Shown piece after piece: positions 5,268 to 35,979 of a stretch of DNA of 58,847 bases; the first letter of the stretch is position 1, and every line of letters begins with the position of its first letter. The stretch covers positions 8,458 through 67,304 of the forward strand of contig JAPLVL010000060.1 in the NCBI GenBank assembly GCA_026397135.1, given 5' to 3'. Under the pieces are notes generated by a model. That model was not told the DNA's origin and did no database searches. It worked only from the letters and a program-made list of their open reading frames with translations. The position numbers and the translations under genes were made by a program. The DNA is from Candidatus Berkelbacteria bacterium (GTDB taxonomy: Bacteria; Patescibacteriota; UBA1384; XYA2-FULL-43-10; 1-14-0-10-43-13).

Positions 5268-6728
5268 CTACTCACTTACTTTCCTCATCTCCTCTTCAAC
5301 ATCGACTACATCTGTCGTACCATCACTATTATACACCCGCATCAGAATCAAGCCACCCTTTCTGGTCTGGTCAATCATGGCGTAAACCTGTTCTAATTTG
5401 GCCACCGGATCATCGATCAGCAGAATTCCGCCATCCATCTCGATTCCCAGTTTGAACAGCTCCCCACCATTGATCGCTCTGGCTCGTTGCGACAGCGTTA
5501 GTTTGCTAAACCGCGGGCGCGAGGGTAATTTGCGCAGTACCAAGATTCCCCCCTTCATCCCATAAGACAGTGACTCTTCGGTAAATTGGTCAGGATCTTC
5601 TATTACGGCTAATCCCTTTCGATTGGCAATGAAATGCATCAGCGCATTGTAATTTACAATTCGATGCACTAGCTCGTCACTATGGCAAACATATTCGCCG
5701 CTCTCGTTTTGGTAAAACGCCCCGAAGTGCTTGAATTGTTTTGAGGGGTCAAGATGGCCGCAGAGGAAGGTTGCACCGGAACCGCCCATGATCTGTTCAT
5801 CACGAAGCTGATTGATATAGCAGGTAGCGTACGCGTACTTCATGAATTCTGTGCTGAAATCACCTGAATCACAGCAAAAGGCTGCCTTGCTGAAACTGGC
5901 CATACCGACACCACACCTATCAATCACGAAACTTGCTCCAGCGTCAGCATTCTTGCCGGTATTAACACTGGTTTGGTAAGCTACAAATTTACCACCGGTC
6001 GCAAATTCGCCCAGCCCTTCATCGCAATATCGCACCTCGATCCGACCGGCCTTCTTGTACATCCCTAGCTTGTCACCGGCAGTAATTATTTTTGCCTCCA
6101 CTGCTCCAGTGCTGGCAAAAGCGTAGTCGCCAACACTTCCTATTTCAATTTTGCCCTTTTCCAGAAAAACACCGAAGAAATTCTTGAAATTGATCGGAAT
6201 ATCTCGGCCGATAATTATTTCGTCGCTTTTCTCTAACATTTTTTCCAAAATAACAGAATTGACCAGGTTGAAGAAAAATCCTCTGCCGGCATACAAGCCA
6301 TAACCGGGGGCATAGTGACTGGTAAAAGTCGAAAACTTTTGATGAAGGCTGCTTTGCTCTAGCCGATCGAGGAGATCAATGTATAACTTTTCGACAAATT
6401 TCATCTCTGGCAAAGATTCAGAGAGCTCGGCCCCAAGGAAGTCGAAGAGTCGGCGACCAGACAGAAGATTGGGTGAATCTCTATCCAAGACTCCCATCAT
6501 TTTCTCTTCAAATTTTTGCCACATATTTTCGTCGGCAAGTTTCTCTTCAAATTCGCGATAAGGGTTGCTCAATTCGACCAATTCTAGAATTTCCGCCTTG
6601 ATTTCTCTCAATTCCCTGATTTCTCTGCTCGATGCTGGAAGGTTTTTCGCCAAAATACCATCAAACCGTCTGAAGTAGCCAGAAATCAGAAGTAAATTTT
6701 CGCTAATTGTATGACAATCAAGTTTCAT
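5268..6728 (-). CDS. NCH-array paralog, class G (N-terminal Cys-helix module + GXGXG beta-helix, GltB C-terminal/FwdC-like)
   Basis: 486-aa ORF. N-terminus MKLDCHTISENLLLISGYFRRFD. Gly-rich beta-helix turns GDYAFASTGAVEAKIITAGDKLGMYKKAGRIEV, GMKGGILVL, MDGGILLIDD, KGGLILMRV. Confidence 0.85.
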   Translation of the reverse strand: MKLDCHTISENLLLISGYFRRFDGILAKNLPASSREIRELREIKAEILELVELSNPYREFEEKLADENMWQKFEEKMMGVLDRDSPNLLSGRRLFDFLGAELSESLPEMKFVEKLYIDLLDRLEQSSLHQKFSTFTSHYAPGYGLYAGRGFFFNLVNSVILEKMLEKSDEIIIGRDIPINFKNFFGVFLEKGKIEIGSVGDYAFASTGAVEAKIITAGDKLGMYKKAGRIEVRYCDEGLGEFATGGKFVAYQTSVNTGKNADAGASFVIDRCGVGMASFSKAAFCCDSGDFSTEFMKYAYATCYINQLRDEQIMGGSGATFLCGHLDPSKQFKHFGAFYQNESGEYVCHSDELVHRIVNYNALMHFIANRKGLAVIEDPDQFTEESLSYGMKGGILVLRKLPSRPRFSKLTLSQRARAINGGELFKLGIEMDGGILLIDDPVAKLEQVYAMIDQTRKGGLILMRVYNSDGTTDVVDVEEEMRKVSE

Positions 6729-6894: not shown

Positions 6895-6914
6895 TCACTG
6901 ACTCACTGACTTAC
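6851..6914 (-). repeat. Tandem octamer array (8 units; coding-strand unit GTRARYMR)
   Basis: Plus strand in perfect 8-nt register: ctgcttac ttgtttac ctactcac ctgtttac ttactcac tgattcac tgactcac tgacttac. Every unit carries TGA or TAA on the coding strand. The last units encode the ...KSKSVSQ* tail of 6895..7986. Confidence 0.9.
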
Positions 6915-7986
6915 TTTTCCCATACACCAGCACTCTGCCATCCTTCAGTGAAATCACAACTGTATGATCCGGGGTAATTTCGACCGCTCGAATGAAGCCG
7001 GATTCCCGCGCAAGGAGATCACTTGGCAGCGGCAACTTGCGAATTTGTTTTCCCGTTGCCAGCTCGAATACTTTTGCTTCATTGAAGACAGTAGCCGCGA
7101 CCAGATATTTACCTTCGGCATCTGCGGCAATTGATACATAATTGTCGGTCTGATCAAAGGGGATCGGCTCGCTCTCCGATTTGGAGTCTCTCAGATTTTC
7201 CAGCAAATATATTTTGTGATCCCAGCCGATGCAAGCGATGCGATCGTTTGGCAGCGTCACGAACTGAGCAATCTTGAAATTGGGTTCTTGGATAAATTTC
7301 TCACTTTTATAATCCCAAACATAGAGACGAAATAATTTGCTCAACGCATAGACTAGCCGGCCATCTCTGGAGAGTTTAATCTTCTCGATATGGACACTTT
7401 GGTCAGGCAATCGAAATTCTCCAGAGCTCATGAACCCAGATCCAATCTTGGCAATTTTGTTGCCGTAAATTCCAACTGTGTGTTCGTCATCAAGAGTGTC
7501 AAACTCATGAGGTAACTGGCCACCTCGAGTGATACCACTAAATTTCGGATCGTAGAGATCATAATAGATCACCACTCGCTTGCCATTATCAAAATCTGTC
7601 GCAGTCAGGTAGAAAAGCTCGTTTTGCACACTCAATCGGCAAGGCCCGAGATTGTTCTGGGTCTCGTCTCGATCAGTGAAAATACTGGTTGTTCTGGACT
7701 GCGCCGTCTCGAAATCATAAATTTGGAAAGACTTGGAAGCATTGACGATCAACAGCTTTTTGCCGTCTGGAGTTAGTCGAACCGGCCAACTGCCATTTCG
7801 ATAAAAATCGAGCTGATCCTCAGGGATCTCGACCCTGAACTCGGTTAACTTCTCGTAACTTCGCCATCTGATTCTCTCCATTTTTGGCTCCAACAGATGA
7901 TTAATTTCACGAGAGACTTCCAAACCTTTGCCAAAATGGCCGGCTTTTTCAGCTGCTTTCAAATTATTGAAATGAAGCTGAACCAC
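6895..7986 (-). CDS. NCH-array paralog, class P (WD40/PD40-like beta-propeller); true start probably upstream at ATT 8031
   Basis: 363-aa ORF from GTG 7986. Blades LTPDGKKLLIV, LSRDGRLVYAL, ITPDHTVVISLKDGRVLVYG. The family Cys motif (INWIGSCAELTSFLTV) lies in frame upstream of the GTG; see finding. Confidence 0.85.
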   Translation of the reverse strand: MVQLHFNNLKAAEKAGHFGKGLEVSREINHLLEPKMERIRWRSYEKLTEFRVEIPEDQLDFYRNGSWPVRLTPDGKKLLIVNASKSFQIYDFETAQSRTTSIFTDRDETQNNLGPCRLSVQNELFYLTATDFDNGKRVVIYYDLYDPKFSGITRGGQLPHEFDTLDDEHTVGIYGNKIAKIGSGFMSSGEFRLPDQSVHIEKIKLSRDGRLVYALSKLFRLYVWDYKSEKFIQEPNFKIAQFVTLPNDRIACIGWDHKIYLLENLRDSKSESEPIPFDQTDNYVSIAADAEGKYLVAATVFNEAKVFELATGKQIRKLPLPSDLLARESGFIRAVEITPDHTVVISLKDGRVLVYGKSKSVSQ

Positions 7987-13366: not shown

Positions 13367-13516
13367 AAATTTTAATTCATTAACCTAATATCGAATCGAC
13401 CGAAATGACCTAGTAATGCCTTCGATTTGATTTGTTCGATTGATTCGGTATTCGGTTGATCTTGTTTCTTGGTTCTAACCCTTGCTGCTTAATTCTTGAT
13501 GAACTTTATAACCTGC
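13367..13516 (-). repeat. Conserved intergenic module, copy b
   Basis: Contains atcgaatcga (13390-13399) and the mismatched partner tcgatttgat (13422-13431), cttgatgaactttataacctgctcac, and 3 octamer units from 13513. Confidence 0.8.
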
Positions 13517-14860
13517 TCACCTACTTACCTGACTCACTGTTTTGCTTATTCCTTCCCAATCCGGCTCATCTTCGACATCTACGAGGCGGCCGATTTCATC
13601 ACCAGTATCGTACACCCGGAGCAAGATCGCGCCGCCACTCTTGCTCTCTGCAATTTTCTCTCGGACTTGCTCTATGGTTGTATTTGCCCTCTCAACAATG
13701 ATCACCCCGCCGGTCATATTTTCTCCGAAAATATCTGGTAGACTCCGAAGTAGCAAGATTCCTTTGTACATTCCTCTGGTTATGTTGGTAGAGTAAAACA
13801 TCCCAGCTGCAGATTCTATAAACCCATCGTCATTTAGAAGCTCGCTTACCACAACCCTACTATGCACTACCGGAATGTGACTCGGAGTCGAGTATTGATT
13901 GAGGTAATTGATTTGTCTTCCACCGAAAGTAAGCTCCTCGACTTGCAAATGCCAAACTCTCATCTCGTTTGTCGAATGGTTCACTACCGGTGGCAGGACA
14001 CGGTCGAAGATGACGTTGCCACTTCTGAAACTGGAAATTTGCTCCGTCTTCCTGGTCACAGCCAGGCCACCGCTCATCTCGGAGGCAAAAGCAAATGACG
14101 CTTCACCAACATGGAGATAGCCACCTCTCAAATGATCCCCAGCAAAGACACCGGCCGTCTCTGCAAAAATTTTGCCGCCAGACATTCGATTGCCAAGTCG
14201 CGAATCAGCCTCACTGACCACGATCACTCCGCCTCGCATCTTGTAGCCAAGCGAATTGCCGGCTCTTTCCAGAACAATTTTGCCGCGCGTGAGGTAAGCC
14301 CCGAAAAAATCATTCAAATCAGGCGGCGGCTCCGACAAGGTGACGACACTATCCTTTTCCATCAATTTATCCAGGAAAATAGCGTTCAGAAAGATTGGCA
14401 GATACAGAGTCTCATTCTCCTCCGATAGCCCAGCAAGCTTTTCGATCCGATTTCTGGCAGCAAGATATTCCGGACTCTTCATGAAATTGAGAAAACTTTG
14501 ATATTGTCGCGTACCGAATTGATTGCGCTTCTTGGTGAAATCGGCAAAAATTGTTTGAAATTCCAAATATCCGTCGTCTTCAAATTCCCTAATTTCGTCA
14601 TCTTCGTAATCTCCTATGCCGGCAATATATTTCCTAAGAATCCAACCGAATCTCTCAATTCTATTCGGCTCGAGGAAATGCAGGATGAAATTGTTCACAT
14701 CAACATTTTTCAAATCAAGCTTCTCAATCTCCGTGCTCATACTCTCTTGGAGCTGCCTCAGTTTTTTGACATTTTTCTGATCATAAAATTGATCAAACTC
14801 CTTCTGACTTCTCTGTAAATTCAAAATACCACTGGTCAGACCTTGGCAATCCAGAGTCAC
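13517..14860 (-). CDS. NCH-array paralog, class G (N-terminal Cys-helix module + GXGXG beta-helix)
   Basis: Start moved to GTG 14860 (GGAGGG at 14874-14869, 8-nt spacer), giving MTLDCQGLTSGILNLQRSQKEFD. GXGXG run GNSLGYKMRGGVIVVSEADSRLGNRMSGGKIFAETAGVFAGDHLRGGYLHVG. Confidence 0.85.
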   Translation of the reverse strand: MTLDCQGLTSGILNLQRSQKEFDQFYDQKNVKKLRQLQESMSTEIEKLDLKNVDVNNFILHFLEPNRIERFGWILRKYIAGIGDYEDDEIREFEDDGYLEFQTIFADFTKKRNQFGTRQYQSFLNFMKSPEYLAARNRIEKLAGLSEENETLYLPIFLNAIFLDKLMEKDSVVTLSEPPPDLNDFFGAYLTRGKIVLERAGNSLGYKMRGGVIVVSEADSRLGNRMSGGKIFAETAGVFAGDHLRGGYLHVGEASFAFASEMSGGLAVTRKTEQISSFRSGNVIFDRVLPPVVNHSTNEMRVWHLQVEELTFGGRQINYLNQYSTPSHIPVVHSRVVVSELLNDDGFIESAAGMFYSTNITRGMYKGILLLRSLPDIFGENMTGGVIIVERANTTIEQVREKIAESKSGGAILLRVYDTGDEIGRLVDVEDEPDWEGISKTVSQVSR

Positions 14861-14918
14861 TTCAGCTTCCCTCCAATCAATCTTCGCTTCACTGTTAGAT
14901 GTAAATCCTCGACCTTTT

Positions 14919-16280
14919 CTAATTACCATTTCGATCCTTCCCGCCTCTACCACTTTGACCGAACAATCTCTTGCCGTTTTTGTCTATATAATAGTCGGTA
15001 TATGCGCCATCTTCGAGGTCAGCGACTTTGGCTACGCCGTCCGCAAACGACCAGGCATTCGCGAAAACTTTCGGCCTGCCATCCGAATCCAGGACAGCCG
15101 GTTTGCCGCTGGTATCGATATAAATCCAGCTATCGGTCATATTTGTTTCTGGATCAATAGGACGAACCGCCGCCATGCCATCGGAGAAACTACGGGCGTC
15201 AATGAAAGCTCGGAAGTGGTTAAGCGCAGGGAAACCGTTTCTGTTGATAAAATATTTGTAATAATTTCCAGTATAATCCGCCGACAAATTCACAGATTCC
15301 ACAAGCGCCAAACCTTCAGAGAAATCTTCTGCTTCCTCAAATGTTTTGAACCCAGTCGGAGAATCAAAGTCGGCTTCAATTCCACCCAAGATACGCATCT
15401 CGGCACCAACTAATTCGCCATACAAATATTCACTATCCTGCTCACTGAAAACAATTTGACAGATACCATTGTGTGGGGGATTGATTGATTCGGGATTGAA
15501 GGGAAGAGTAAATTCAACTTTGCTCCCATCAGTTGACACAGCTGCCCAAATCGATCTTCCTCGATCATCAAATGAGCCAGTATCGACAATTGATATTCCC
15601 TCACTAAAAGGGCTAACATTTTCGAGAATATCTTCTGTAATCACATTTCCACTGGTGTCGATCAATTTGAAATTATCATTGATTGTCTCCGCTACCCAGG
15701 CTCGATCATCACGAAAAGGAGTCGCGATCAAATAATATTGCGAGGTCTTGCCATCCGAATCGAGAAAAGTCAGCCTGCCCGATTCAAGTGGCGATACCAA
15801 ATATGGCGGATCAGAATCCTCATCGAGGTAGCGGAAACGTTCGGAAATTGGCTCTCCTTCTCGATCAATTAGTTGATAATTGTCCGTACGCGAAGTCCCA
15901 ATCCATTCTTCCATCTCAAAACTGGTGTGAATCCAAGCCGAGCCCTGCCTGAACTTGCCAACGCCTGTTATCGGCTGATCACGAAAATCTTTGATAATTT
16001 CGCCCTGGCTCGAGACAAGGAGATACGATTCATCGTTTGTGCCGAAGGCCAATCCCTCGTGGAATTTTCCAAGCCAATTAAGCCCTAACTGCTTGGCAAT
16101 CCGATCGCGGATCAAGACTTGGTTCAGGTCGGCCAGCTCGATAATTTCCGTCATCTCTGATTGAATATTTCTATATTTCTCCATCGCCTTGCCGATTCGT
16201 CCAGCTTCAAAGTTATCATCAAACTCCGCGAATAGCTTCGGCAATTTCAGAAGTTTGGTGGTAATTTCAAGACATCTCAT
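14919..16280 (-). CDS. NCH-array paralog, class W (N-terminal Cys-helix module + WG-containing repeats)
   Basis: 453-aa ORF. MRCLEITTKLLKLPKLFAEFDD. Repeats FHEGLAFG, FRQGSAWI, FSEGLALVE, FSDGMAAVR, FADGVAKVA. Confidence 0.85.
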   Translation of the reverse strand: MRCLEITTKLLKLPKLFAEFDDNFEAGRIGKAMEKYRNIQSEMTEIIELADLNQVLIRDRIAKQLGLNWLGKFHEGLAFGTNDESYLLVSSQGEIIKDFRDQPITGVGKFRQGSAWIHTSFEMEEWIGTSRTDNYQLIDREGEPISERFRYLDEDSDPPYLVSPLESGRLTFLDSDGKTSQYYLIATPFRDDRAWVAETINDNFKLIDTSGNVITEDILENVSPFSEGISIVDTGSFDDRGRSIWAAVSTDGSKVEFTLPFNPESINPPHNGICQIVFSEQDSEYLYGELVGAEMRILGGIEADFDSPTGFKTFEEAEDFSEGLALVESVNLSADYTGNYYKYFINRNGFPALNHFRAFIDARSFSDGMAAVRPIDPETNMTDSWIYIDTSGKPAVLDSDGRPKVFANAWSFADGVAKVADLEDGAYTDYYIDKNGKRLFGQSGRGGKDRNGN

Positions 16281-18463: not shown

Positions 18464-18688
18464 TTTCGTACTGATTTTGTCCGCTAGATCGAGAGCATCT
18501 CTACATTTCTCGGCATCGAAAAAAGAGTCAAATTGGAATTTGCTTTTTCGCAGTGAAATGATTTCTCGGGATAAATTTGCACAATCAACTATCAGAAAAA
18601 CCCCTCTCTTCTAGTGGTAATTTCATTTTACCAAAAAATCCACACTAATACCTGTGGATTATATTTATTGCCAGAAATTGTCTCTTTG

Positions 18689-18706: not shown

Positions 18707-18816
18707 GACTGTTATGACCTTGCTTAACACTTAATCCTTAACACTTAATTCTTAATCCTTGATTCTTGCTTACTCACTGATTTACTGACTTACTAGCTTT
18801 TAGCTTTCGACTTATG

Positions 18817-20175
18817 TCATCTGACTTCCAGAAACTCTGCCTTTTTGCTCTTGATTCCCCATTTGCGTTCGGTCCATTTACGCAAATACAGGATAATTCC
18901 ACCAGAGCGGTCTTTACTAACCATTTTGGTTGCTTCCTCATATGACAAATCCGGTACATCAATAATTATGACGCCGCCACGCTGGCCTTTGCCAATTTCA
19001 TCTGGAAACATTAGTAGATCCATATCCCTGAGAAGCACAATGCCATTTTGCAGCAGCGAAAAATCGGCTTTTTCGGTTGAAGAGAGTATTGAATTTTGAG
19101 TCCGATTGAGCACATAGACACCGGAATCTAGCTGGGTCTGAACAAGCAAGGATTTGAGTCCTGAATAGTGCAAGATGTTTTGACTCGAATTTATCATTTG
19201 GAATGAGTTCTTCGCTTCGTCATAACAGACAATTTGGCCATCAAATATGGAATGAAGCCCCATGTTGCTTTCGATCTGACTTTTCTTGCATTTGACAAGC
19301 ACAGTTGTATCTTCATGGGCCCCAATCTTGAAGTAAGCGTCTGGGGAAACTTCATTTACTACGAAAGTACCGCCCTGAGCGCCAAAACAAAGACTTGTAT
19401 CGTCGACCTCAGAGTTAAACTCGAATTTTTTAACAAAAATAGTTCCGCCAGTGGCGCTCGTGGCCAAATTGGCTCGGCTCATCCTATCAACCACAATTTC
19501 GCCGCCTTTCATCCCCTTTCCGATATTTCCCCCAGCTTCACCAACACTGATCCTGCCCCCAACCATTTCTTCACCAAGCTTAGGGTAGCCATCACTTGGC
19601 TTTTGTTTGCCAAATCGGCCAAGCTTGACCTCACCGCCGCGCATATATGTGAAGGCCTCACTCTCCAGCCGATCTATCTCCAAGTTTCCCTTCTTCAAAA
19701 CATAGCCAAACTTATGGCGCAACGCTTCCGGCAAATCGGTAAAATTAATTTCCAAACCGGGTACGCTCGAATAATTATTGAGAAACAGTCGGTTCAGGTA
19801 TGTGATCGCCCAATCAATGTCAGATAGTTTGTGTCTTTCCAAATATTCAGCACTAGACTGAAGAAATCGGCGATAATTCCAGCTTTTGATCGGATATTCA
19901 CAGTACTTGCCAATTCCAGATTCAAAATTTATAGCCGTGCCGTTCTCGCCATCTTTGAAATATTCGACCAGCATCGGGTATTTCTCCAGATTGGCGAAGA
20001 AATCCTCGACAATTGGCGGATATTCATCATAAAATTCCTGGAAATTTTTGATAATTTCCTGTTGCATCCCCCTCCCTGTCACTGAGATTGGCTTCTCGAT
20101 TTCCAAATACTGCTCCAGCTCTTGCTGGGACGCAATAATCGAGCGAATTAATTGGGTTAATTTCTTGCAGTTCAT
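18817..20175 (-). CDS. NCH-array paralog, class G (N-terminal Cys-helix module + GXGXG beta-helix)
   Basis: 452-aa ORF. MNCKKLTQLIRSIIASQQELE. GEEMVGGRISVGEAGGNIGKGMKGGEIVV, GQRGGVIIIDV, RSGGIILYL. Confidence 0.85.
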   Translation of the reverse strand: MNCKKLTQLIRSIIASQQELEQYLEIEKPISVTGRGMQQEIIKNFQEFYDEYPPIVEDFFANLEKYPMLVEYFKDGENGTAINFESGIGKYCEYPIKSWNYRRFLQSSAEYLERHKLSDIDWAITYLNRLFLNNYSSVPGLEINFTDLPEALRHKFGYVLKKGNLEIDRLESEAFTYMRGGEVKLGRFGKQKPSDGYPKLGEEMVGGRISVGEAGGNIGKGMKGGEIVVDRMSRANLATSATGGTIFVKKFEFNSEVDDTSLCFGAQGGTFVVNEVSPDAYFKIGAHEDTTVLVKCKKSQIESNMGLHSIFDGQIVCYDEAKNSFQMINSSQNILHYSGLKSLLVQTQLDSGVYVLNRTQNSILSSTEKADFSLLQNGIVLLRDMDLLMFPDEIGKGQRGGVIIIDVPDLSYEEATKMVSKDRSGGIILYLRKWTERKWGIKSKKAEFLEVR

Positions 20176-21031: not shown

Positions 21032-21205
21032 AATATTTATTTTGTTAGCCAAATATCGAATCGACCGAATAATACCTTCGATTCGATTTATTCGGTTGAT
21101 GAGGTATCTTAATTCTTAATCCTTACTGCTTAATTCTTGATGAACTTTATAACCTGCTCACCTGTTTACTGACTCACCGATTCACTGACTTACTGATTCA
21201 CTGAT
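21032..21205 (-). repeat. Conserved intergenic module, copy c (full length)
   Basis: Stem-loop arms atcgaatcga 21055-21064 and tcgattcgat 21078-21087 (13-nt loop). Core gaggtatcttaattcttaatccttactgcttaattcttgatgaactttataacctgc is identical to copies a and e. Octamer array 21154-21209. Confidence 0.85.
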
Positions 21206-21209
21206 TCAC
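21154..21209 (-). repeat. Tandem octamer array (7 units)
   Basis: ctgctcac ctgtttac tgactcac cgattcac tgacttac tgattcac tgattcac. The stop of 21206..22606 (TGA, 21208-21206) lies in the first coding-strand unit. Confidence 0.9.
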
Positions 21210-22606
21210 TGTTCACCTTCCACATCGACCAGTCTCGACTTGTCAAGATCAGTCTTGTCCCAGATGCGTAGTAGGATCAGACCGCCAGACTTGGTCTTTG
21301 AAATTTTGGGCCTCACTTCGTCTATAGATACCTTTGGATCGTCAATTATAATAGCTCCACCTGTCATCCCCTCACCAATATCATGATCCGGTATTCTCTT
21401 GAGCACCAAAATTCCGCCTTTCATTGCCTCAACATGATTGTATAGCTTCGGAACATGAGACGGAATTGTATTAAACCCGACTCCACTTTCCAGAAAATTG
21501 GTTAATTGGTCGTTATTTGTGATCACATTTGCAGTGCCGCCTGTACCGTTGAAATAATGAGAACTAGTGGATATATAGGTAGCTATCCCACGAAATTTTG
21601 CCACGGAATAAGAATGATTGGTTTTGTAATGAATGTTAATGTCGGCCTCCTCTCCAGCCAGAAAGGTAGCCAGGCTTGAGATAGAACCCTTGGCAATATC
21701 TTTCGCTTCTTCGCCGATATAGGCACCGTTGGTTGCCCTGGATCCGAGTTTGTCTCCACCGTGATGGACGACAACGACTCCACCTTTTCCTTCAACTCCT
21801 GGTGAATCTCCGGATCTCTCCGCTACTGCGACTCCACCTTTGATTCTGGCGGCGAAGCAATCACCTGCTTTGCCCACACTAATCTTACCACCCATTACGC
21901 CTTCGCCTGCCCATTCTTCAACCTCATCAACCCAGAGCTCCCCGCCCCGAAGGTAGTTCCCAGCACCGCGACCAAGTTTTCTTGATATAATCTTACCATG
22001 ACTTAGCCCGACACCGAAAAAGATGAAAAGACCCATCGGAACTGAATAATTTCTGATATCAAGCGTCTGGTCCTCCCCCAAGAACTCCTCGAGAAAGCAA
22101 CTATTTAGGGCAGCCAGTAATTCGCGAATACCGATTTGATTCACTAAACTATTTTCACTTCTGCCTGAGTGAAAAATTGAAATTTCAGTAATAATCATCT
22201 TCAGATTTTCGTGAATTTCCGGATTTCTGATCAGTCTGTCTAGAAATTTGCCATAGCTCTCTGACTTCAATTTGACCGAACTCCTCTCTCCTTTTAGGAA
22301 TGGGGATAAATATCTTTTTCGATAGTGATCAATAATATAGACCAGAAATTCGTTAAGTGAACTAGAAAAATTCATCGCTTCATGGAGAATTTCGCGGAAA
22401 TGAAAAAGGTTTGTGTCAGAGAGAATTGATTCGATGAAAAGCGACCCCGGTGAGATTTGCTCCAAAACTTCAGTCAATTTCAGGTCAATTCTTTCCTTGA
22501 TTGGCCGAATTTTCGACATGGTCTTGGGCGAATCGTCAAAATCTCTGGCCATATCAGCCAGCTGTGCAATATCTTCTAAAATTGTTAGACAATTAAGCAT
22601 GGTCAT
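21206..22606 (-). CDS. NCH-array paralog, class G (N-terminal Cys-helix module + GXGXG beta-helix)
   Basis: 466-aa ORF. MTMLNCLTILEDIAQLADMARDFDD. GAGNYLRGGELWVDEVEEWAGEGVMGGKISVGKAGDCFAARIKGGVAVA, GEGMTGGAIIIDD, KSGGLILLRI. Confidence 0.85.
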   Translation of the reverse strand: MTMLNCLTILEDIAQLADMARDFDDSPKTMSKIRPIKERIDLKLTEVLEQISPGSLFIESILSDTNLFHFREILHEAMNFSSSLNEFLVYIIDHYRKRYLSPFLKGERSSVKLKSESYGKFLDRLIRNPEIHENLKMIITEISIFHSGRSENSLVNQIGIRELLAALNSCFLEEFLGEDQTLDIRNYSVPMGLFIFFGVGLSHGKIISRKLGRGAGNYLRGGELWVDEVEEWAGEGVMGGKISVGKAGDCFAARIKGGVAVAERSGDSPGVEGKGGVVVVHHGGDKLGSRATNGAYIGEEAKDIAKGSISSLATFLAGEEADINIHYKTNHSYSVAKFRGIATYISTSSHYFNGTGGTANVITNNDQLTNFLESGVGFNTIPSHVPKLYNHVEAMKGGILVLKRIPDHDIGEGMTGGAIIIDDPKVSIDEVRPKISKTKSGGLILLRIWDKTDLDKSRLVDVEGEQ

Positions 22607-22782
22607 TGTTTGAAAATCGGTCCAGTTCGACTATTAATTATTTGGATTACTTTTATTTTATCATCTTACTCACCCGACGGATATATAACGGATCGAGATA
22701 ACAAATTGTGACATTTGATAATATTAAATTCATTATAGCTTGATGAACCTGACGAACTTGATAACTTGATGAACTTTATGGC

Positions 22783-22846
22783 CTGCTCACCTGTTTACCT
22801 GTTTACTTACTCACCGATTCACTGATTTACTGACTTACTGACTTAC
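22783..22846 (-). repeat. Tandem octamer array (8 units)
   Basis: ctgctcac ctgtttac ctgtttac ttactcac cgattcac tgatttac tgacttac tgacttac. Encodes the ...KSKSVSQ* tail of 22827..23969. Preceded by cttgatgaactttatggcc. Confidence 0.9.
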
Positions 22847-23969
22847 TTTTCCCATACACTTCAATATTTTTGTAGCCACAGCCAAAGGCGATCATATCAT
22901 CTGCGCCAACCTCGATCGTACGGACATTGTCTTCGACTATAAATTTATGGACAATTTCGCCGGTAGCCATCTTAATCACGGAAATTTCGGAGGTTTTGTC
23001 CTTGTCGCTGTACGGTTTGCTACTCACGATCAAATTTCCAAATTCTCGATCTATCGCCAGGGCGAAGGCGCGAGCTCGATCCATCACGGTTGACTCTTGG
23101 CCTGTTTCAAGATCATATGAGTAGAGCTCGGCTCTGCGAAAATGCGAGGTATAGATTTTCCTCTTGCCATCAAAGGCATACGATCTGATCGCTTCCAAAA
23201 CCGTCTTGACCTTGCCCGTCTCACAGTCCCAGATTACTAAATGTTTTTCACAATCGAAGCCGAGTAGATATTTACCGTCGTCAGAAAATTCCATTGTTTT
23301 GGGATACCCCATTTCCTCCGGCACATCCTCGAAATTCTGCCAGTCGGCAAGAATTTTCCGATTATATCCACAAGAAGCCATCCGATTGTATTCCTCGTCA
23401 TACGCAAATGCCCCGCTGCAGCCCAGATCTTCCTTTTTGAGCAGCCTATTTTCGTCAAGGTCATATACCGCCATCTTCCTCTGTACCCTTTTGTCGACAG
23501 TGTTGCTATACCGATCGACCAAGATGAAGAGTAAATTCCAATCTGGTCTGAAAACAATATTAAAATCGCCATCAAAGAAATATCCTAGTCTCTGATCTCC
23601 CGTCATATTCGTCGGCGCCTCAAGGTAGCCCGTCACCTCGCCCGTTTTCAGGTCGCAAAATTTCAGCTTGTCTTTGGCTGCCAATGTGACTATACTCCGG
23701 CCATCTGGCGTAATCTTCATCGAAAACCGCATTTTATCACTGAGTTGATTGAGTTCCCAGATTGTTTCAATATCTTTGGTGACCGAGGAAATTTGGCCAA
23801 AATATTTCCAATAAATTGATTCCTTGGCTTCGCTGACTTTTTCGGCCAACGCCACCTTCTTCTCCCTGGCGATTTGGACAGCTGAAGCATTTATTACATC
23901 CGAAAATTCCCTCTCCATTTGGGAGAGATCGTTTACAATTTGGCTAATTTTCTTACAATCAAACGGCAT
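22827..23969 (-). CDS. NCH-array paralog, class P (N-terminal Cys-helix module + WD40/PD40-like beta-propeller)
   Basis: 380-aa ORF. MPFDCKKISQIVNDLSQMEREF. Blades ITPDGRSIVTL, FSDDGKYLLGFDCEKHLVIWD. Confidence 0.85.
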   Translation of the reverse strand: MPFDCKKISQIVNDLSQMEREFSDVINASAVQIAREKKVALAEKVSEAKESIYWKYFGQISSVTKDIETIWELNQLSDKMRFSMKITPDGRSIVTLAAKDKLKFCDLKTGEVTGYLEAPTNMTGDQRLGYFFDGDFNIVFRPDWNLLFILVDRYSNTVDKRVQRKMAVYDLDENRLLKKEDLGCSGAFAYDEEYNRMASCGYNRKILADWQNFEDVPEEMGYPKTMEFSDDGKYLLGFDCEKHLVIWDCETGKVKTVLEAIRSYAFDGKRKIYTSHFRRAELYSYDLETGQESTVMDRARAFALAIDREFGNLIVSSKPYSDKDKTSEISVIKMATGEIVHKFIVEDNVRTIEVGADDMIAFGCGYKNIEVYGKSKSVSQ

Positions 23970-24156
23970 AAATTCTTGATTCGTTAACCTAATATCGAAT
24001 CGACCGAGTAATACCTTCGATTCGATTGATGAGGTATCTTAATTCTTAATCCTTACTGCTTAATTCTTGATGAACTTTATGGCCTGCTCACCTGTTTACC
24101 TGTTTACTGACTCACCGATTCACTGACTTACTGACTCATCTGCTCACCTGTTCGCC
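23970..24156 (-). repeat. Conserved intergenic module, copy d (full length)
   Basis: Stem-loop arms 23994-24003 and 24017-24026. Core as in copies a/c/e except tatgg for tataa. Octamer array 24084-24155. Confidence 0.85.
24084..24155 (-). repeat. Tandem octamer array (9 units)
   Basis: ctgctcac ctgtttac ctgtttac tgactcac cgattcac tgacttac tgactcat ctgctcac ctgttcgc. Begins 1 nt after the stop of 24157..25425. Confidence 0.9.
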
Positions 24157-25425
24157 TCACTTTTTACCGAAGAACCGCTGCCCCCACTCGTTGATCTGGC
24201 CGAACCACTTACCAGGACCGGCAGCATCACAAACATCGACCAAATTATCGTACCGTAGATGATTCGCCGAAATCATTGGTTTCAGATACCGCTGCTCGGA
24301 AATTTCATTGCCACGATGATTAATCAGGTGCCAGCCCCCTTCTCCACTAACGAAGAAGATACCATTGCGGAAATTCTTTATCTCACGATAATTCTTGTTA
24401 TCAATTCTATTACCAGATTTGTCTATCAGAAACCATTTATCACCCTGCTTCACACCAGACACGCCATGATCGAAGAACCCAGGGGTATAATCAAACGGTC
24501 CGGCCAGCTCCGCCCCGGTCTTGTCGATCAGGAAATATTTTTCGTCCAGATAAATTCCTTTCTTGACGAAGGCGCGATCTTCGTGAAACTCAAACGGCTC
24601 GACCACATCCCTCTTCTCGAAGAGAACTTCCCCAGCAGCGTCATAGAGCTGCCAGTACTTCCTCTTGCCGTCTCCAACCCAACTCACGCCATCGGAAAAA
24701 GCTTGGCATTCAAGTGAGAAATTCGAGGGAGTAACTATCTCCTCGTTTGATTGGTCAATCAAACGAATCAGATGGGTAGATGCATCTGAAAAATAGACCC
24801 AGGCCCGACCCTCCCGCATCATCGTCAATGGTTCGTATGCAACTCTCCCCAACTTGAAATTAATCCCTCCGGTGTCATCGAGAAAATATTTTCGACTACC
24901 ACTACGAGGCATCTTCTCATTTACAATGATTAAGCCGGTATTTTCGAAATTTTCCTCGTCAACACCGGAGACATATATCATTTTTTCAGTTACACCATTT
25001 TGGTTGATTAGGCGAAGAAGAGTAGAATTGCTATTTCCAATCGGTTCGCGATCTGACTGTTCCCAAATCCAGGCCGTACCCTGATAAAATGGTGTATGAC
25101 GAAATTTGCCCAAATCTTCTGAAAACTTTGTGCCGGTCCGATCGATAATCCAGAGATGAGATCCGTCAGCATCGTTATATCTAGCCCAGCTCAAGTCTCC
25201 ATGAAACGGCTCGACAAACTGAAATCCCTCCCTTTTTGCAATTTCATCGCGAAGATAATTCTCAAAGGGATCATTGATTTTGCTCATTGTCTCAAGCCAG
25301 CTTTCCTGAAATTTTGATTTGTGAACCTTGCAATCAGAAATCTTGACCAAATCAAAATCACGATCAAAATTATCAATCAAATCCCGAAAACTCATTATCT
25401 TGTCGCTGACTTCTCTGCAATTCAT
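24157..25425 (-). CDS. NCH-array paralog, class W (N-terminal Cys-helix module + WG-containing repeats)
   Basis: 422-aa ORF. MNCREVSDKIMSFRDLIDNFDRDFD. Repeats FYQGTAWIW, MREGRAWVY, FSDGVSWVG, FHEDRAFVK, FDHGVSGVK, FRNGIFFVS. Confidence 0.85.
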   Translation of the reverse strand: MNCREVSDKIMSFRDLIDNFDRDFDLVKISDCKVHKSKFQESWLETMSKINDPFENYLRDEIAKREGFQFVEPFHGDLSWARYNDADGSHLWIIDRTGTKFSEDLGKFRHTPFYQGTAWIWEQSDREPIGNSNSTLLRLINQNGVTEKMIYVSGVDEENFENTGLIIVNEKMPRSGSRKYFLDDTGGINFKLGRVAYEPLTMMREGRAWVYFSDASTHLIRLIDQSNEEIVTPSNFSLECQAFSDGVSWVGDGKRKYWQLYDAAGEVLFEKRDVVEPFEFHEDRAFVKKGIYLDEKYFLIDKTGAELAGPFDYTPGFFDHGVSGVKQGDKWFLIDKSGNRIDNKNYREIKNFRNGIFFVSGEGGWHLINHRGNEISEQRYLKPMISANHLRYDNLVDVCDAAGPGKWFGQINEWGQRFFGKK

Positions 25426-25449
25426 ACTGCTTTCTTTTGACTTTATAAC

Positions 25450-25513
25450 TGACTCACTGATTTACTTATTTACTTATTTACTTGCTCACTTACTTACTCA
25501 CTTACTCACCTGC
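25450..25513 (-). repeat. Tandem octamer array (8 units, 3' units degenerate)
   Basis: tgactcac tgatttac ttatttac ttatttac ttgctcac ttacttac tcacttac tcacctgc. Contains the stop of 25502..26689. Confidence 0.85.
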
Positions 25514-26689
25514 TAACTTCCCTTTTCCATTGTTCAGTCTCACATAGCGACCATCGGGTGAAATGAACCAAACCGAGCGGTCAGGCGTCAAGAAAACCTC
25601 TTTTGGGGTAATCCGCAGATTGAGAGGAGTTTTGAAAACAGCTTTACCGTCTTCGACCCGAATTATTCTGAAATTACTGTCATAATCAATGGCAAAGAGA
25701 AATTGACCAGTCGGATCAACGCTGAGTCGATCAGTTTCGAGACCGGAAGCGATCATCACTTTCTCACTACTATCAATATTAAATTCACTAATCCTACCTC
25801 CACGGGCATAGAAAATCAGGTTTGGCTCCGCCTGACTGGTAGCAAAGGCTGTTACATCATTGGCAATAGTTTTCTCGAAACAGCGTCCCTCAATATTCCA
25901 CAAACACAAGCTATGAGTATATGAGGTCGAGACAACATATTTTCCATCTCTCGTAACCTCAAATTGCCTTGTCCCGTCCGGCATCATGTTGAGTTTTTTG
26001 GCCGATACTCCCTTTTCAGAGATTGGCCCACCAGAAAAACTATCAGCGCTTCGGTCCAAACTTTCAAGTAAGTCAGCAACAAGCTCGCGCTCCATGTTCA
26101 GCGCTATAACCAAAGCTTTGTTTCCCGGAATTGGACGAACAGAATGATTCTCCTCAAACGGAAGTCTCGGCGTGCCGAGTATTTCGCCGTCCTTTATCCC
26201 AATGACGGAAATTCTCTTGTCGCTACCATAATCATCGGTTTGAATTATCATCAAGGTCTCATCATCGAGACAAACCATCTCCCTCACCATGTCGTTTTTG
26301 AATGTACGAACCAATTGGTAGGCATTGGTAATTATCGGCGAACTCTGGGGCATGTCAATCAGTCTTGTCTCTGGCTCCCCTCCACCCTCGCCAACAAAGC
26401 GAATGGCTAGTTTTTCCCGATTCAAGGCATAAATCAGAAAATTTCGATCCGGTGTAACGGCATACAGGCTCGGATCATCAGCCTCGGTATCCTGAGGATG
26501 GATCGAACCGGACTCCTGCTCCTTCAATCCAAGCCAGAAAATTTGCCTGTAAATATGCTCAATATTTTCCGTTATTTTGGCTATTTCGTCGAAGCCGTCC
26601 TTGTACTGACCTCCAGAAACAAGCCGATCAAAATCGGATATAGACTTGCACAAATTCTTGATATTTTCTGAAATTTCTCTGCAATTCAT
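25502..26689 (-). CDS. NCH-array paralog, class P (N-terminal Cys-helix module + WD40/PD40-like beta-propeller)
   Basis: 395-aa ORF. MNCREISENIKNLCKSISDFD. Blades VTRDGKYVVSTSYTHSLCLWNI, VDPTGQFLFAIDYDSNFRIIRV, ISPDGRYVRL. Confidence 0.85.
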   Translation of the reverse strand: MNCREISENIKNLCKSISDFDRLVSGGQYKDGFDEIAKITENIEHIYRQIFWLGLKEQESGSIHPQDTEADDPSLYAVTPDRNFLIYALNREKLAIRFVGEGGGEPETRLIDMPQSSPIITNAYQLVRTFKNDMVREMVCLDDETLMIIQTDDYGSDKRISVIGIKDGEILGTPRLPFEENHSVRPIPGNKALVIALNMERELVADLLESLDRSADSFSGGPISEKGVSAKKLNMMPDGTRQFEVTRDGKYVVSTSYTHSLCLWNIEGRCFEKTIANDVTAFATSQAEPNLIFYARGGRISEFNIDSSEKVMIASGLETDRLSVDPTGQFLFAIDYDSNFRIIRVEDGKAVFKTPLNLRITPKEVFLTPDRSVWFISPDGRYVRLNNGKGKLAGE

Positions 26690-26713: not shown

Positions 26714-26777
26714 TGACTCACTGATTTACTGATTTACTTATTAACTTATTAACTTGCTCACTTCTTTACCTGCTCAC
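26714..26777 (-). repeat. Tandem octamer array (8 units)
   Basis: tgactcac tgatttac tgatttac ttattaac ttattaac ttgctcac ttctttac ctgctcac. Contains the stop of 26758..28203. Confidence 0.85.
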
Positions 26778-28203
26778 TATTATATTTCACTTCCAAAAGC
26801 TTCGTCTTCTTCGGATTATCAGGGTCACGCTCTCGGATGAAGATTAGACCGCCTTCCCGCTCTGGACAAAGTCTCGCCCGAGCGTCTTCCTGTGTCAGAC
26901 CGGGCACTTCCAAAATCAGAATTCCGCCAGTCATGCCCTCGCCAATCAGAGACTTCGGCATTATTTTGCTAACACGGATACCATGATCCATTTGATATGT
27001 TGGATTGGCCAAGAGCCCATCATTGCTCGCAATCATAACGAGTCTCGGCATTTTCTTCTCCAGATGTTTCCTGAATTCACGCTCCGAAGTGACAAATCTG
27101 GCCTGGCTTGCTCTCGGAGAAGATAATTCGAAATATCTCCCGACACTTTCGTCATAGAAATAAATATTTCGCCACTCACCTCCCATGATTGTGTTTGGAC
27201 CATATTCACCGAGAAGGATCTGAGCCATGGCTCCCGTATCTGTGCGAATATTCGAACTATGAGCAGTCAATAGACTCTCACCGACTTTGTTTAGTCGCAA
27301 ACTCTTGATATAGAGAGTCGGCGTCTTGCCCCTTAGCCCGAGAATTTTGACATTGGCATCAGTATATCGAATATAGAAGGTTGCACCGGAGTCGGAAATT
27401 TCAATGTTACTCCGAGCCGTACCAATTTCAAACACTACCTTGCTCTCGGCCATAGTTCCGATTGCCCGTTCTGATTGATTGTCAGAGAGCAGTTCCAGGT
27501 CATAAATTTTGATTCGGCCTTTGATCGCTGCATATCCGGTATCTGGCCCAGCTCCAATCGCTTCGATGCTACCGCCGTTTAATTTGTAACCAAAAGCGAA
27601 GTCAGACTCATTGAAAATAATGTTTTCCTTGGCATTCAATCCGATCCCGAAATACGCTGGCGCCTTGGTATCAGCGAAAAGCGATTTGCCCTTTTCTATA
27701 TATTTCTCTATGAAGAGTGTGTGAAAAATAGAAATTAGCTTTTCACCCATATCAACAAAAGGAGATTGGCCAAGTAACGATTCCCAAATCAGTCGGGAGA
27801 CTCGGCCACTCTCCAAGCGAGAAGCAAAATCCTTGTAAGCCCTCGTCGTTAATTTGCCGGGGACAAAATCTTTGCCATTTAGAATTTCTCTGATTTTGTC
27901 ACGGTAGAGGAGCTCCACATCGTCACTTGTCATTTTCTTCAGCATCACTGATTCTATTTCATCACAAACCTTCATGATCTCACCCCAGGTCTCGTCGTCC
28001 TCTAGTACCTTGATAAATTGGCGCCCCAAATAGATGAATTCGCCTTCTATTTCGGCAACATCTTGATTTATCTCCGATTTCTTGTCGAAAAGTCTCCTCA
28101 CTTTGTCCGTGCTGTTCACCTCACCAAAAATAGAGTTAAAGAATTTAACCTTTTTCTCTAATCCCTGAATTTTCTGGCTGATTTTTTGGCAATGATCCGG
28201 CAT
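26758..28203 (-). CDS. NCH-array paralog, class G (N-terminal Cys-helix module + GXGXG beta-helix)
   Basis: 481-aa ORF. MPDHCQKISQKIQGLEKKVKFFN. AFGYKLNGGSIEAIGAGPDTGYAAIKGRIKIY, GEGMTGGILILEV, REGGLIFIRE. Confidence 0.85.
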   Translation of the reverse strand: MPDHCQKISQKIQGLEKKVKFFNSIFGEVNSTDKVRRLFDKKSEINQDVAEIEGEFIYLGRQFIKVLEDDETWGEIMKVCDEIESVMLKKMTSDDVELLYRDKIREILNGKDFVPGKLTTRAYKDFASRLESGRVSRLIWESLLGQSPFVDMGEKLISIFHTLFIEKYIEKGKSLFADTKAPAYFGIGLNAKENIIFNESDFAFGYKLNGGSIEAIGAGPDTGYAAIKGRIKIYDLELLSDNQSERAIGTMAESKVVFEIGTARSNIEISDSGATFYIRYTDANVKILGLRGKTPTLYIKSLRLNKVGESLLTAHSSNIRTDTGAMAQILLGEYGPNTIMGGEWRNIYFYDESVGRYFELSSPRASQARFVTSEREFRKHLEKKMPRLVMIASNDGLLANPTYQMDHGIRVSKIMPKSLIGEGMTGGILILEVPGLTQEDARARLCPEREGGLIFIRERDPDNPKKTKLLEVKYNSEQVKK

Positions 28204-28331
28204 AAATCCCTTGATTTGTTAACCTAATATCGAATCGACCGAAACGACCTAATAATGCCTTTGATTCGATTGATGAGGTATCTTAATTCTTAATCCTTAC
28301 TGCTTAATTCTTGATGAACTTTATAACCTGC
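28204..28331 (-). repeat. Conserved intergenic module, copy e
   Basis: Stem-loop arms atcgaatcga 28229-28238 and ttgattcgat 28261-28270 (one mismatch). The 57-nt core is identical to copies a and c. 3 octamer units from 28328. Confidence 0.85.
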
Positions 28332-29552
28332 TTACTTACTCACCTGCACACTATTAATTCTTGCTGACTGTCCGTAAACGATGATTTGGCCATTGGAGAG
28401 TCCCACAATAACTTTGCCATCGATACCAAAACTGAAATGATCTATCTTGATTACATCATTTGCCGAAGTGACATTCGCAACATTCTGATTCAAAAGGTTT
28501 GTGAGATCAGCGATCATATGTCTGGGGGTACCATAGCGTTTGTGCTCAATTATCTCGATTTTGAAATCCGCAGTTATCGCGGCCAGAAGCTCGCCATCCG
28601 GACTAGCCGCCAAGTGTAAATACTGCTCATCTGACTGAACATCTGCGCATTCATAACCACGGCAATAATCTCCATCGCCTCGATCCATTTTGTAAATTTG
28701 GATCCGGCCCAAAAACTCAGTATTTCTGTTGGTGATGAAGACAAATGTATCGTCCTCCGGCAAGAGAGCCCAATCCACCACCTTGCTGCCCGGTTCGGCA
28801 ATCATCTCATGAGTATTGAAGTCAAAGATCAGCAATTTCATATCCAATGTATCAACATATACATATTTGGCTTCTCTAGAGAGTTTGATTTTGTCAAAAC
28901 CAGCATATTGAAGTTGCTCTGGGATATCGAATTCACGCCTGTCCCGCCTACCATAGAGCCAGAGATTCGAAGTCATTTCATTGACCGAGCGGACGCCGAC
29001 AAATTCAGTGTTATAGTCAGAGGCCGCAAATACCCTCGGCACTTCGTCTCCAAATTGATTCAATTTCAAATTATCTCCGCCAACACAGTCCAAGACATAT
29101 TTATTGGGTCCTTTGCCACCTTGGAAAATCTCGGCCACTCGGACGATAGCGCCACCGTCTCGCGGTACCAAGAAGCCGTCAAATAGAAACTTTTCGCCGT
29201 TGCAAACTAGCGGCAGATCAGTAGCTGTACCATCAGACAAATCAATAATTTTGAGCATCGAAGAAGACTCTTCGAAGACGAGCGATTTGCCGTCGTCAGA
29301 GATCTCTATTCTTTTATCCCTCGGATTTGACCAGCGCTCAACCTTGTGTTCGAATTCATAGAGTGGTTTGTAGAGCGCGAAACGCAAAGATTCTCTGAGT
29401 TTCTTTAGGTCTAGATTGATCGCCCCCGAGAAATAGCGGCAGGACTGAACATGGAATTTCTCCGGCTTCATGTAGTCGTCAAAAGAGCGCAGATTCATAC
29501 GAATTCTACGAAGTGTCTTGATCATCTCAGTGCAATTTGGCGCCTCCTCCAA
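28332..29552 (-). CDS. NCH-array paralog, class P (N-terminal Cys-helix module + WD40/PD40-like beta-propeller)
   Basis: 406-aa ORF from TTG 29552 (GGAGGG 3 nt upstream). MEEAPNCTEMIKTLRRIRMNLRSFDD. Blades ASPDGELLAAI, FGIDGKVIVGLSNGQIIVYG. Confidence 0.85.
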   Translation of the reverse strand: MEEAPNCTEMIKTLRRIRMNLRSFDDYMKPEKFHVQSCRYFSGAINLDLKKLRESLRFALYKPLYEFEHKVERWSNPRDKRIEISDDGKSLVFEESSSMLKIIDLSDGTATDLPLVCNGEKFLFDGFLVPRDGGAIVRVAEIFQGGKGPNKYVLDCVGGDNLKLNQFGDEVPRVFAASDYNTEFVGVRSVNEMTSNLWLYGRRDRREFDIPEQLQYAGFDKIKLSREAKYVYVDTLDMKLLIFDFNTHEMIAEPGSKVVDWALLPEDDTFVFITNRNTEFLGRIQIYKMDRGDGDYCRGYECADVQSDEQYLHLAASPDGELLAAITADFKIEIIEHKRYGTPRHMIADLTNLLNQNVANVTSANDVIKIDHFSFGIDGKVIVGLSNGQIIVYGQSARINSVQVSK

Positions 29553-29595: not shown

Positions 29596-29624
29596 ATTTT
29601 AACAAAAAATTTGTGCGTTGTATA
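29596..29624 (-). promoter_or_regulatory. Candidate extended -10 promoter for 28332..29552
   Basis: Minus strand TATACA (29624-29619), 17 nt spacer, TAAAAT (29601-29596) with TGT immediately upstream (TGTTAAAAT), about 45 nt upstream of TTG 29552. Motif match only. Confidence 0.35.
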
Positions 29625-29736
29625 TTTCCCATAAAAATTCTATTTATTGATTCGCCACCCAAAGCCAAAACGAGCGAGCTGTCTCGCTGATTTACTGACT
29701 CACTTGTTTGCTTCCCCACCATTCCTCCCTACTTCA

Positions 29737-35817: not shown

Positions 35818-35979
35818 AAGTTCTTGATTTATTGACTTAGTATCGAATCGACCGAATCGACCGAATAATACCTTTGGTTCGATTTATTCGATTGATTCGA
35901 TTGATTCGGTATTCGGTTAGTCTAACTGGTTAATCCTTGCTTCTAGCTCTTTCAGACTTCTTTGGACTCTTTTGGACTT
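35818..35979 (-). repeat. Conserved intergenic module, copy g (divergent)
   Basis: tatcgaatcgaccgaatcgaccgaataatacctttggttcgatttattcgattgattcgattgattcggtattcgg: the same building blocks with extra cgaccgaa and gattgattc duplications. No clean octamer array. Confidence 0.65.

Follow-up and report, generated by a model that had tools for sequence, protein, structure and literature searches.

Long simple sequence repeats, in the account of Mrazek, Guo & Shah 2007 that is given in PMC4679880, are tandem arrays of 5-11-nt units that are longer than expected by chance and mainly intergenic; according to the same account, the preferred units are specific to each genome and slippage has been proposed for them. 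TAACTGA repeats have been described in marine Beggiatoaceae, some Cyanobacteria and Bacteroidetes (MacGregor 2015, PMC4679880). The forward TAACTGA repeats contain stops in all three frames and are therefore necessarily located at the ends of ORFs, with 13 sets overlapping the upstream stop; the function of the repeats is unproven, and a post-transcriptional binding site has been proposed (PMC4679880). The GGGAATC heptamers of Xanthomonas and Nostoc are found preferentially between aligned ORFs and, when on the sense strand, are located at most 50 bp from a stop codon or overlap it, with most of them being transcribed (Rehm et al. 2015, PMC4692102).

The arrays examined in this study, which are built from the octamer GTRARYMR, lie in a window of 58,847 nt (the whole stretch of DNA that was analysed) from a putative CPR genome. 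In agreement with long simple sequence repeats, they consist of head-to-tail units in the 5-11-nt range, extend beyond chance, and change in copy number by whole units at paralogous junctions. In agreement with stop-anchored forward repeats, the unit contains a stop, is not a multiple of three in length, and lies on the sense strand between co-directional genes. Compared to the TAACTGA repeats, the arrays share an intergenic location with a fixed orientation to the flanking genes, a unit length that is not divisible by three, a stop within the unit, an overlap with only the last few upstream codons, and downstream genes that lack a Shine-Dalgarno site (as is often the case for TAACTGA). However, TAACTGA is one fixed heptamer whereas GTRARYMR is a degenerate octamer, and TAACTGA repeats are usually positioned a few nucleotides before a start codon whereas the GTRARYMR arrays abut the upstream stop and are separated from the next ATG by 29-146 nt; the arrays are thus of the same kind as the TAACTGA repeats but belong to another family. 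In addition, unlike TAACTGA, the GTRARYMR arrays have been seen only within a single paralog gene array of the putative CPR genome. The position between co-directional ORFs, the proximity to a stop and the sense-strand orientation are shared with the GGGAATC repeats, but those repeats are G-rich and form G-quadruplexes, while the GTRARYMR arrays are without G-runs and display no significant structure. With respect to long simple sequence repeats and the STRR heptamers of cyanobacteria, octamers are less commonly reported than heptamers and, unlike in those systems, the GTRARYMR array belongs as a module to a larger conserved spacer.

A search for three consecutive GTRARYMR units, allowing at most one mismatch, returned 40 overlapping matches in the window, all on the minus (coding) strand, compared to zero matches in 100 dinucleotide-preserving shuffles, such that none are expected by chance. 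An in-register scan of the window resolved 12 arrays of 3-9 units each, all on the minus strand and in strict 8-nt phase, and TRF reported a period of 8 or 16 at the octamer array sites. All large ORFs of the window are likewise encoded on the minus strand, and the octamer arrays lie between these co-directional genes. Every array that had been located in the earlier note was recovered by the in-register scan, with revised extents for three of them (at 13513, 25450 and 51883), and an array absent from that list was identified at 18770-18793. Independent Logan unitigs from two runs (X1 and X2) showed zero differences to the array flanks, indicating that the arrays are real and not an assembly artefact. 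The unitigs of both runs end inside the repeated spacers; therefore, the number of units and the order of genes in these regions are those given by the original assembler.

The nine-unit array J24 (24084-24155, minus strand, as are all arrays and spacer elements described below) reads gcgaacag GTGAGCAG atgagtca GTAAGTCA GTGAATCG GTGAGTCA GTAAACAG GTAAACAG GTGAGCAG, and the TGA stop of gene 24157..25425 is located 2 nt upstream of it. In J22 (22783-22846, eight units), the TAA stop of gene 22827..23969 (22827-22829) falls in the third unit and the protein tail SKSVSQ is encoded by the array; the eight-unit array J68 (6851-6914) contains the stop of 6895..7986 in its third unit and encodes the same SKSVSQ tail. 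The TGA stop of 21206..22606 is in the first unit of J21 (21154-21209, seven units). J25, which had been placed at 25450-25513, was confirmed with an extent of 25450-25517. Its seven units fit either of two registers (25450-25505 or 25462-25517), part of the array can also be read with a GTRA period of 4 nt, and the stop of 25502..26689 lies inside it. J26 (26714-26777, eight units) contains the stop of 26758..28203, and its 3' flank is the same as that of J25, to the ATG and beyond. Among the shorter arrays, 5252-5283 (four units) contains the TAG stop of 5268..6728, and 28328-28351 (three units) contains the stop of 28332..29552. The array at 13513, which had been given an end at 13536, was found to extend to 13544; it comprises four units with one 9-nt slip and encodes the tail KTVSQVSR* of 13517..14953. 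The three units at 18770-18793 begin 24 nt past the stop of 18817..20175 and lie upstream of a terminator-like site at 18660-18637, while the orphan array at 29688-29711 (three units) follows no ORF and runs straight into a terminator-like hairpin at 29688-29673. Finally, the interrupted array that had been placed at 51884-51913 is present with slightly wider limits (51883-51914, four units); it begins 39 nt past the stop of 51953..53290 and is followed by heptamers, a GTTATAAAG motif and an Ssn-type GTCAT hairpin.

It had been claimed that each unit contains a stop, that consecutive units close all three reading frames and that genes terminate inside the arrays. A stop codon (TAA, TGA or TAG on the coding strand) was observed in 64 of the 68 units, with the remaining four lacking one. 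The arithmetic of frame closure is right: 8 = 2 mod 3, and three units cover all three frames. For nine of the 11 upstream genes the stop falls within an array or immediately next to one, and the other two stop earlier, at distances of 24 nt (18817..20175) and 39 nt (51953..53290). The protein tails that had been quoted were also found to be right (...VYGKSKSVSQ* in both 6895..7986 and 22827..23969, ...ISKTVSQVSR*, ...RKVSE* and ...SEQVKK*), and the arrays do supply stop codons and short protein tails. In contrast, the idea of a designed all-frame stop cassette was not supported, as the property arises automatically whenever a unit holds a stop and its length is not a multiple of three, and a random octamer unit of the same composition has a computed 46% chance of holding a stop. 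The all-frame stops are an arithmetic consequence and not a design. Furthermore, since 7-9 units provide highly redundant stops, the conservation of every unit cannot be due to frame closure, and arrays that come after the stops are unable to shift the reading frame within a gene body. The all-frame stop property was previously noted for TAACTGA repeats (PMC4679880). As both this property and the position after stops have already been published for heptamers, the present case alone changes nothing that is known. Its significance is that it documents the stop-anchored repeat class in a putative CPR genome, a small genome in which non-functional DNA is expected to be scarce, and that the repeat belongs here, as a module, to a composite spacer whose conservation far exceeds that of the genes on either side of it.

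The 68 units comprise 26 distinct sequences. Positions 1, 2 and 4 are occupied by G, T and A in 65, 62 and 66 units, respectively, and positions 3, 5, 6, 7 and 8 (R, R, Y, M and R) are each divided approximately 50:50 between two states. It is at exactly these five two-state positions that GTGAGTCA and GTAAACAG, the commonest of the extreme units, differ from each other. Rare changes to a third state occur with about equal frequency at the 'invariant' positions and elsewhere, and the combination C6-C7 was never found among the 68 units. Two readings accommodate this pattern: selection on a GT-R-A core, and a mixture derived from two founder units, GTGAGTCA and GTAAACAG. A binding site would be favoured if the GT-A core were under selection. 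Invariance at positions 1, 2 and 4 combined with two states at the rest is not predicted by simple slippage followed by neutral decay, and it counts against the explanation preferred below.

Differences in copy number between otherwise similar spacers, which had been proposed from the sequence, were confirmed, as paralogous junctions share the order of their units and differ by whole 8-nt units. For example, J21 corresponds to the 3' part of J24 minus exactly one GTAAACAG. These whole-unit differences are behaviour of the slippage type and point to slippage or unequal exchange. The proposal that the arrays are recombination joints did not fare as well: no rearrangement breakpoints were found in the arrays, and the likeness among spacers runs from the array to the next ATG.

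The octamer array is not free-standing but is the 5' edge, variable in length, of a composite spacer, which on the coding strand is ordered as stop, octamers, GYYATAAAG, GTTCATCAA, TAAG-heptamers, hairpin, AU-rich stretch and ATG. This spacer is anchored at the downstream start codon and is found at about ten junctions of the paralog array, while most junctions (overlaps or short gaps) are without an array. In the spacer of J24, the motif RGYYATAAAGY (24074..24084) is in 8-nt register with the array and is followed by a block of TAAG-heptamers (AATTAAG, CAGTAAG and GATTAAG; 24037..24068) and by a hairpin with a 10-bp stem (ATCGAATCGA-N13-TCGATTCGAT; 23994..24026) that lies inside the conserved leader. 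RGYYATAAAGY is present in 10 copies in the window (at 5242, 6841, 13503, 21144, 22773, 24074, 25440, 26704, 28318 and 51848), compared to 0.28 expected, and each copy is located directly 3' of an array. The core of the heptamer block has four exact copies in the window, at 6804, 21107, 24037 and 28281. The copies of the hairpin are nearly invariant and covariation is absent; because of this invariance, covariation gives no information. In the copies at 13367-13514 and 35818-35935 the arms of the hairpin are extended by 9-nt units, and GTCAT...ATGAC hairpins are found in several spacers. The distance from array to ATG ranges from 29 to 146 nt overall and from 114 to 146 nt in the long spacers.

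The conserved part of the J24 spacer outside the array (23970..24083) ends exactly at the ATG of 22827..23969. Among the five long copies (J24, J21, J68, J28 and J13), this non-array part is 69-92% identical, compared to an identity of 0.51-0.55 for the flanking 90-nt coding pieces and 0.49 for random 90-mers. The similarity among spacers starts at the array and stops at the ATG, and the genes upstream and downstream belong to different fold classes according to Pfam (WD40-like, WG repeat and GXGXG). A functional leader, instead of recent spread, could account for conservation that ends precisely where the genes do. The spacer of J22 contains additional GTTCATCAA-like units (a tandem expansion) and is chimeric, with a left part like that of J24 and a different right part; the breakpoint is within the GTTCATCAA segment and not in the octamers. 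With five near-identical spacers carrying 3 to 9 units before different genes, the locus represents a compact test bed for whether unit number affects termination, re-initiation or transcription.

In run X1, the unitig containing the spacer core has a depth of 20-21, compared to 6.8 for single-copy sequence, which corresponds to approximately three copies and agrees with the four exact copies in the window. This depth of about three times single copy indicates that the exact spacer is not abundant elsewhere in this genome. The paralog gene family is extremely rare, with one relative (33% identical to the query, 21206..22606) detected among 5.8 billion proteins, and a search for related loci with the WG protein found nothing. 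The locus of the relative, on a 971-kb contig, contains a similar co-directional array of Cys-module genes. No octamer arrays are present at that locus, which contains a (TAAGCAA)20 heptamer array, Ssn hairpins and TATAAT boxes approximately 7 nt before start codons. A metagenome scan for an array combined with GYYATAAAG identified only unrelated (GTAA)n microsatellites. When one genome per species was scanned for five perfect units, similar octamer arrays were found at at least 120 loci in many phyla, and the matches listed include Planctomycetota, Bacteroidota, Chloroflexota, Acidobacteriota, Nitrospirota and others, with no CPR genomes among them. Many of the matched genomes contain several arrays of one preferred unit, and these arrays frequently lie beside further short tandem repeats and frequently begin at a stop codon. 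The gene upstream of the arrays in these other phyla is on the same strand in 54 cases and on the opposite strand in 30, a ratio that is indicative only, being derived from naive ORF calls in a query-biased sample. A general link to four-helix-bundle (PF05635) genes, for which there is one clear case, was rejected, as such genes accompany 2 of 120 loci among the matches listed and none are found in the window. Judging from these sequences, the octamer-array kind is widespread and the GTRARYMR version is lineage-specific and labile. An exact-string literature search for these octamers returned nothing relevant.

A promoter-like site (TATACA-17-TAAAAT with TG; 29596..29624, minus strand) precedes gene 28332..29552, which has a strong Shine-Dalgarno site, and a terminator-like hairpin followed by a T-run (18637..18660, minus strand) marks the putative end of a transcription unit. 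Between the sites at 29624-29596 and 18660-18637 lies a putative transcription unit, inside which there are six array junctions. The additional terminator-like site at 29688-29673 abuts the orphan array only. Consensus scans of the array-bearing spacers identified neither promoter-like nor terminator-like sites, Rfam gave zero matches at gathering thresholds in the whole window, and the arrays folded as RNA no better than shuffles (z = -0.6 to -1.6). The arrays are accordingly not intrinsic terminators, a reading that the earlier note had named as one that would refute its own, since a G+C-rich hairpin with a T-run is absent from the array-bearing spacers and array folding is not significant. 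The candidates intrinsic terminator, sigma-70 promoter, Rfam RNA and stable RNA structure were thus all negative for the arrays. The genes downstream of arrays are without a Shine-Dalgarno site, as are most genes in the window, and strong Shine-Dalgarno sites occur at the first genes after promoter-like sites. The first 40 nt past the stops have a mean purine content of 61%, compared to approximately 55% in coding DNA. At other genes of the window and in the relative, -10 boxes are located approximately 7 nt upstream of the ATG, a spacing suggestive of leaderless transcripts.

With moderate confidence, we consider the arrays to be a lineage-specific member of the known 5-11-nt repeats that follow stops and vary by slippage-sized steps, carried on a spacer that was spread by recombination and acting as a transcribed linker. 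The spacer would have been spread or homogenised recently through recombination between junctions of the paralog array, and the arrays would lengthen and shorten in 8-nt steps via slipped-strand mispairing or unequal exchange. Given T-R-A at positions 2-4 and 8 = 2 mod 3, any entering frame would be closed within three units, and it is because frames close this early that genes appear to end in arrays, with tails of up to approximately 10 residues. Frame closure would then be a consequence of the repeat and a condition for its toleration at this position, and not a demonstrated purpose. Within a polycistronic mRNA, the array would form an unstructured, purine-rich and C-poor linker leading from the upstream stop to the conserved leader, which in turn would belong to the next gene, itself without a Shine-Dalgarno site. 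A role as linker, with co-transcription in a polycistronic mRNA, appears most likely from the arrangement of the genes and signals. The interpretation in the earlier note is partly supported.

There are several potential alternatives to a transcribed linker of this type. The arrays may be a periodic binding platform, as had also been suggested, in which each unit (the GT-R-A core, repeated every 8 nt) is occupied by one subunit of a cooperative nucleic-acid-binding protein and the number of units tunes the downstream paralog. A protein of this kind would account for the invariant G1, T2 and A4 core among positions that otherwise vary freely (26 distinct units among 68), for the strict 8-nt phase, and for the fixed partner GYYATAAAG, with its -10-like TATAAA, after every array; moreover, arrays that are unstructured as RNA would suit single-strand binders. 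Models exist among DNA-binding proteins (MetJ on tandem 8-bp met boxes, the omega repressor on 7-bp heptads and ParG on tetramer boxes spaced 8 bp apart) and RNA-binding proteins (TRAP and HutP on spaced triplets). In the MetJ met-box, omega and ParG operators, 2-10 units with a period of 7-8 bp are arranged in tandem beside a promoter-like element, and the number of units sets cooperative binding. The period and phase of the GTRARYMR arrays fit these operators, but Pfam detected no ribbon-helix-helix match, nor an RNA-binding one, on the 20 window ORFs scanned, and met boxes are palindromic while GTRARYMR units are not; the likeness is used here as a working analogy, and membership is not claimed. 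Three further points weigh against a binding platform: the single relative found to share the gene family has none of these arrays, two founder units sharing exactly the core positions would also explain the invariance, and, because every copy is descended from a single spacer, the common orientation of the arrays does not count as independent evidence. Overall, this reading is considered unlikely. It is more doubtful still that the GT-R-A core is a recognition code, with the arrays as cooperative platforms for a protein that would bind nucleic acid in single- or double-stranded form and set the expression of individual Cys-module paralogs or, more broadly, that the 7-9-nt stop-anchored arrays of many phyla share one dedicated generating or reading mechanism as opposed to independent slippage.

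We assign a low probability to the view that the arrays were selected as all-frame stop cassettes and recombination joints, which would permit the shuffling and duplication of cassettes with termination in any frame. The stops in all frames are real and genes of three fold classes end in arrays, but the arithmetic behind the stops would apply to 46% of random octamers, and 7-9 units are kept where three suffice. Deletions or duplications could arise between near-identical direct-repeat spacers, which are 1.2-1.6 kb from one another, and one X2 unitig joins 21135 to 26682, although this junction is weak, with 28 nt on its shorter side. The chimeric nature of J22 would also be in line with such joints, yet its breakpoint is in the GTTCATCAA segment and outside the octamers; most junctions of the paralog array are without an array, and the gene array of the relative manages without octamers. 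Equally improbable is a function as upstream elements of internal promoters, with the TATAAA of GYYATAAAG as the -10 element and the number of units tuning or phase-varying the next gene. Heptanucleotide repeats in promoters are a known precedent, for example the 7-bp repeats in the Haemophilus hmw promoters, and the TATAAA here occupies a fixed position after every array and lies 19 nt before the ATG in J25 and J26, in a window where other genes, like those of the relative, have -10 boxes approximately 7 nt before the ATG. However, on inspection no match to a -35 element was seen and the extended -10 is incomplete, the spacers gave no promoter in the consensus scan, the clearer promoter-like sites of the organism read TGNTAAAAT, and in long spacers the motif is located approximately 105 nt from the ATG. 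Finally, it is possible in principle, and in our estimation extremely unlikely, that rows of weak Shine-Dalgarno-like sites (AGGUGA in the octamers and UAAGGA in the heptamers) hold or re-capture ribosomes and feed them to the downstream start. The absence of a Shine-Dalgarno site from the downstream genes would agree with this, as would the complementarity of AGGTGA and TAAGGA to adjacent parts of the canonical 16S 3' end (assumed, and not the organism's own). The resemblance to anti-16S (GGTGA) sequences that had been pointed out is present in approximately 14 of the 68 units (counted from the array sequences) but in none of those of J25 (25450) or J26 (26714); in addition, most genes in the window are without a Shine-Dalgarno site regardless of a preceding array, and in long spacers 114-146 nt separate the array from the ATG.

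Two further resemblances were rejected. Integron attC sites were dismissed because GTTATAA misfits the GTTRRRY core, only about 10 of 44 junctions carry the spacer whereas an attC would follow every cassette, and no integrase domain was detected in the 20 window ORFs scanned. The units also resemble eukaryotic splice sites (CAG|GTRAGT), a likeness treated as coincidental because the genes are dense, intron-free and equipped with bacterial signals.

The conserved C-terminal codons of the GXGXG-class genes (window 21195-21215) read GGT GAA CAG TGA, encoding G-E-Q-stop, so that the gene end already contains a GTGAACA(G) unit. A gene end that was duplicated in tandem, together with its stop codon, may thus have given rise to the octamer array. 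No octamer arrays were found in the locus of the sole relative found with the same gene family (L121). The relative's locus contains a perfect (TAAGCAA)x20 heptamer array (L121:7588-7726), which is preceded by a GC-rich hairpin and lies immediately upstream of a GIY-YIG (Ssn-type) gene.

A 44-nt core of the spacers between the paralog genes occurs as four exact copies in the window (at 6804, 21107, 24037, and 28281). Because Logan unitigs end at these copies, the gene order of the assembly between those junctions rests on paired-read evidence. Both arms of the spacer hairpin at 13367-13514 and 35818-35935 are made up of 9-nt tandem units (CGAATCAAT, TCGGTCGAT), and the arms are longer in these two copies, which appears to reflect parallel expansion of both arms. 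The spacer J22 is a chimera (22739-22780): it has the octamer array and GCCATAAAG in common with the spacer J24, while beyond GCCATAAAG the place of the heptamer-hairpin leader is taken by tandem units of the GTTCATCAA type, together with a TATAAT box and a hairpin of the GTCAC type.

Many Cys-module genes have a TATAAT or TGNTAAAAT box approximately 7 nt upstream of the ATG, as seen at the L121 gene starts and at window positions 58774, 46936, and 45633; the position of this box suggests that these genes have individual promoters producing leaderless mRNAs. Strong Shine-Dalgarno sites were observed for only a few genes in the window (55993, 50223, 29552, and 16280); three of these four are each the first one downstream of a promoter-like site, and the majority of the internal genes of the paralog array have no Shine-Dalgarno site.

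Among the matches listed, only two of the 120 octamer-array loci contain a gene for the PF05635 '23S rRNA intervening sequence' four-helix bundle. In one Planctomycetota MAG (L093:5986-6718), this gene lies between two inverted octamer arrays (GTGAGTCG/GTGAATCG units, 15 and 24 copies), and the convergent neighbors are chorismate synthase and secretin genes, with the stop codon of each forming the start of one array. At four other loci, from Acidobacteriota, Desulfonatronovibrio, and Kapaibacterium MAGs (L014, L112, L003, and L019), a GTGAATCG-type array is immediately followed by a second array of short tandem units of another kind (GGGAGACG, CAGAGGTC-like, or CATAAATCC). Two of these loci, L014 and L112, lie on the same Acidobacteriota contig, and both have a CTCTGTGTCCTCTGTGCCTCTG motif after the arrays.
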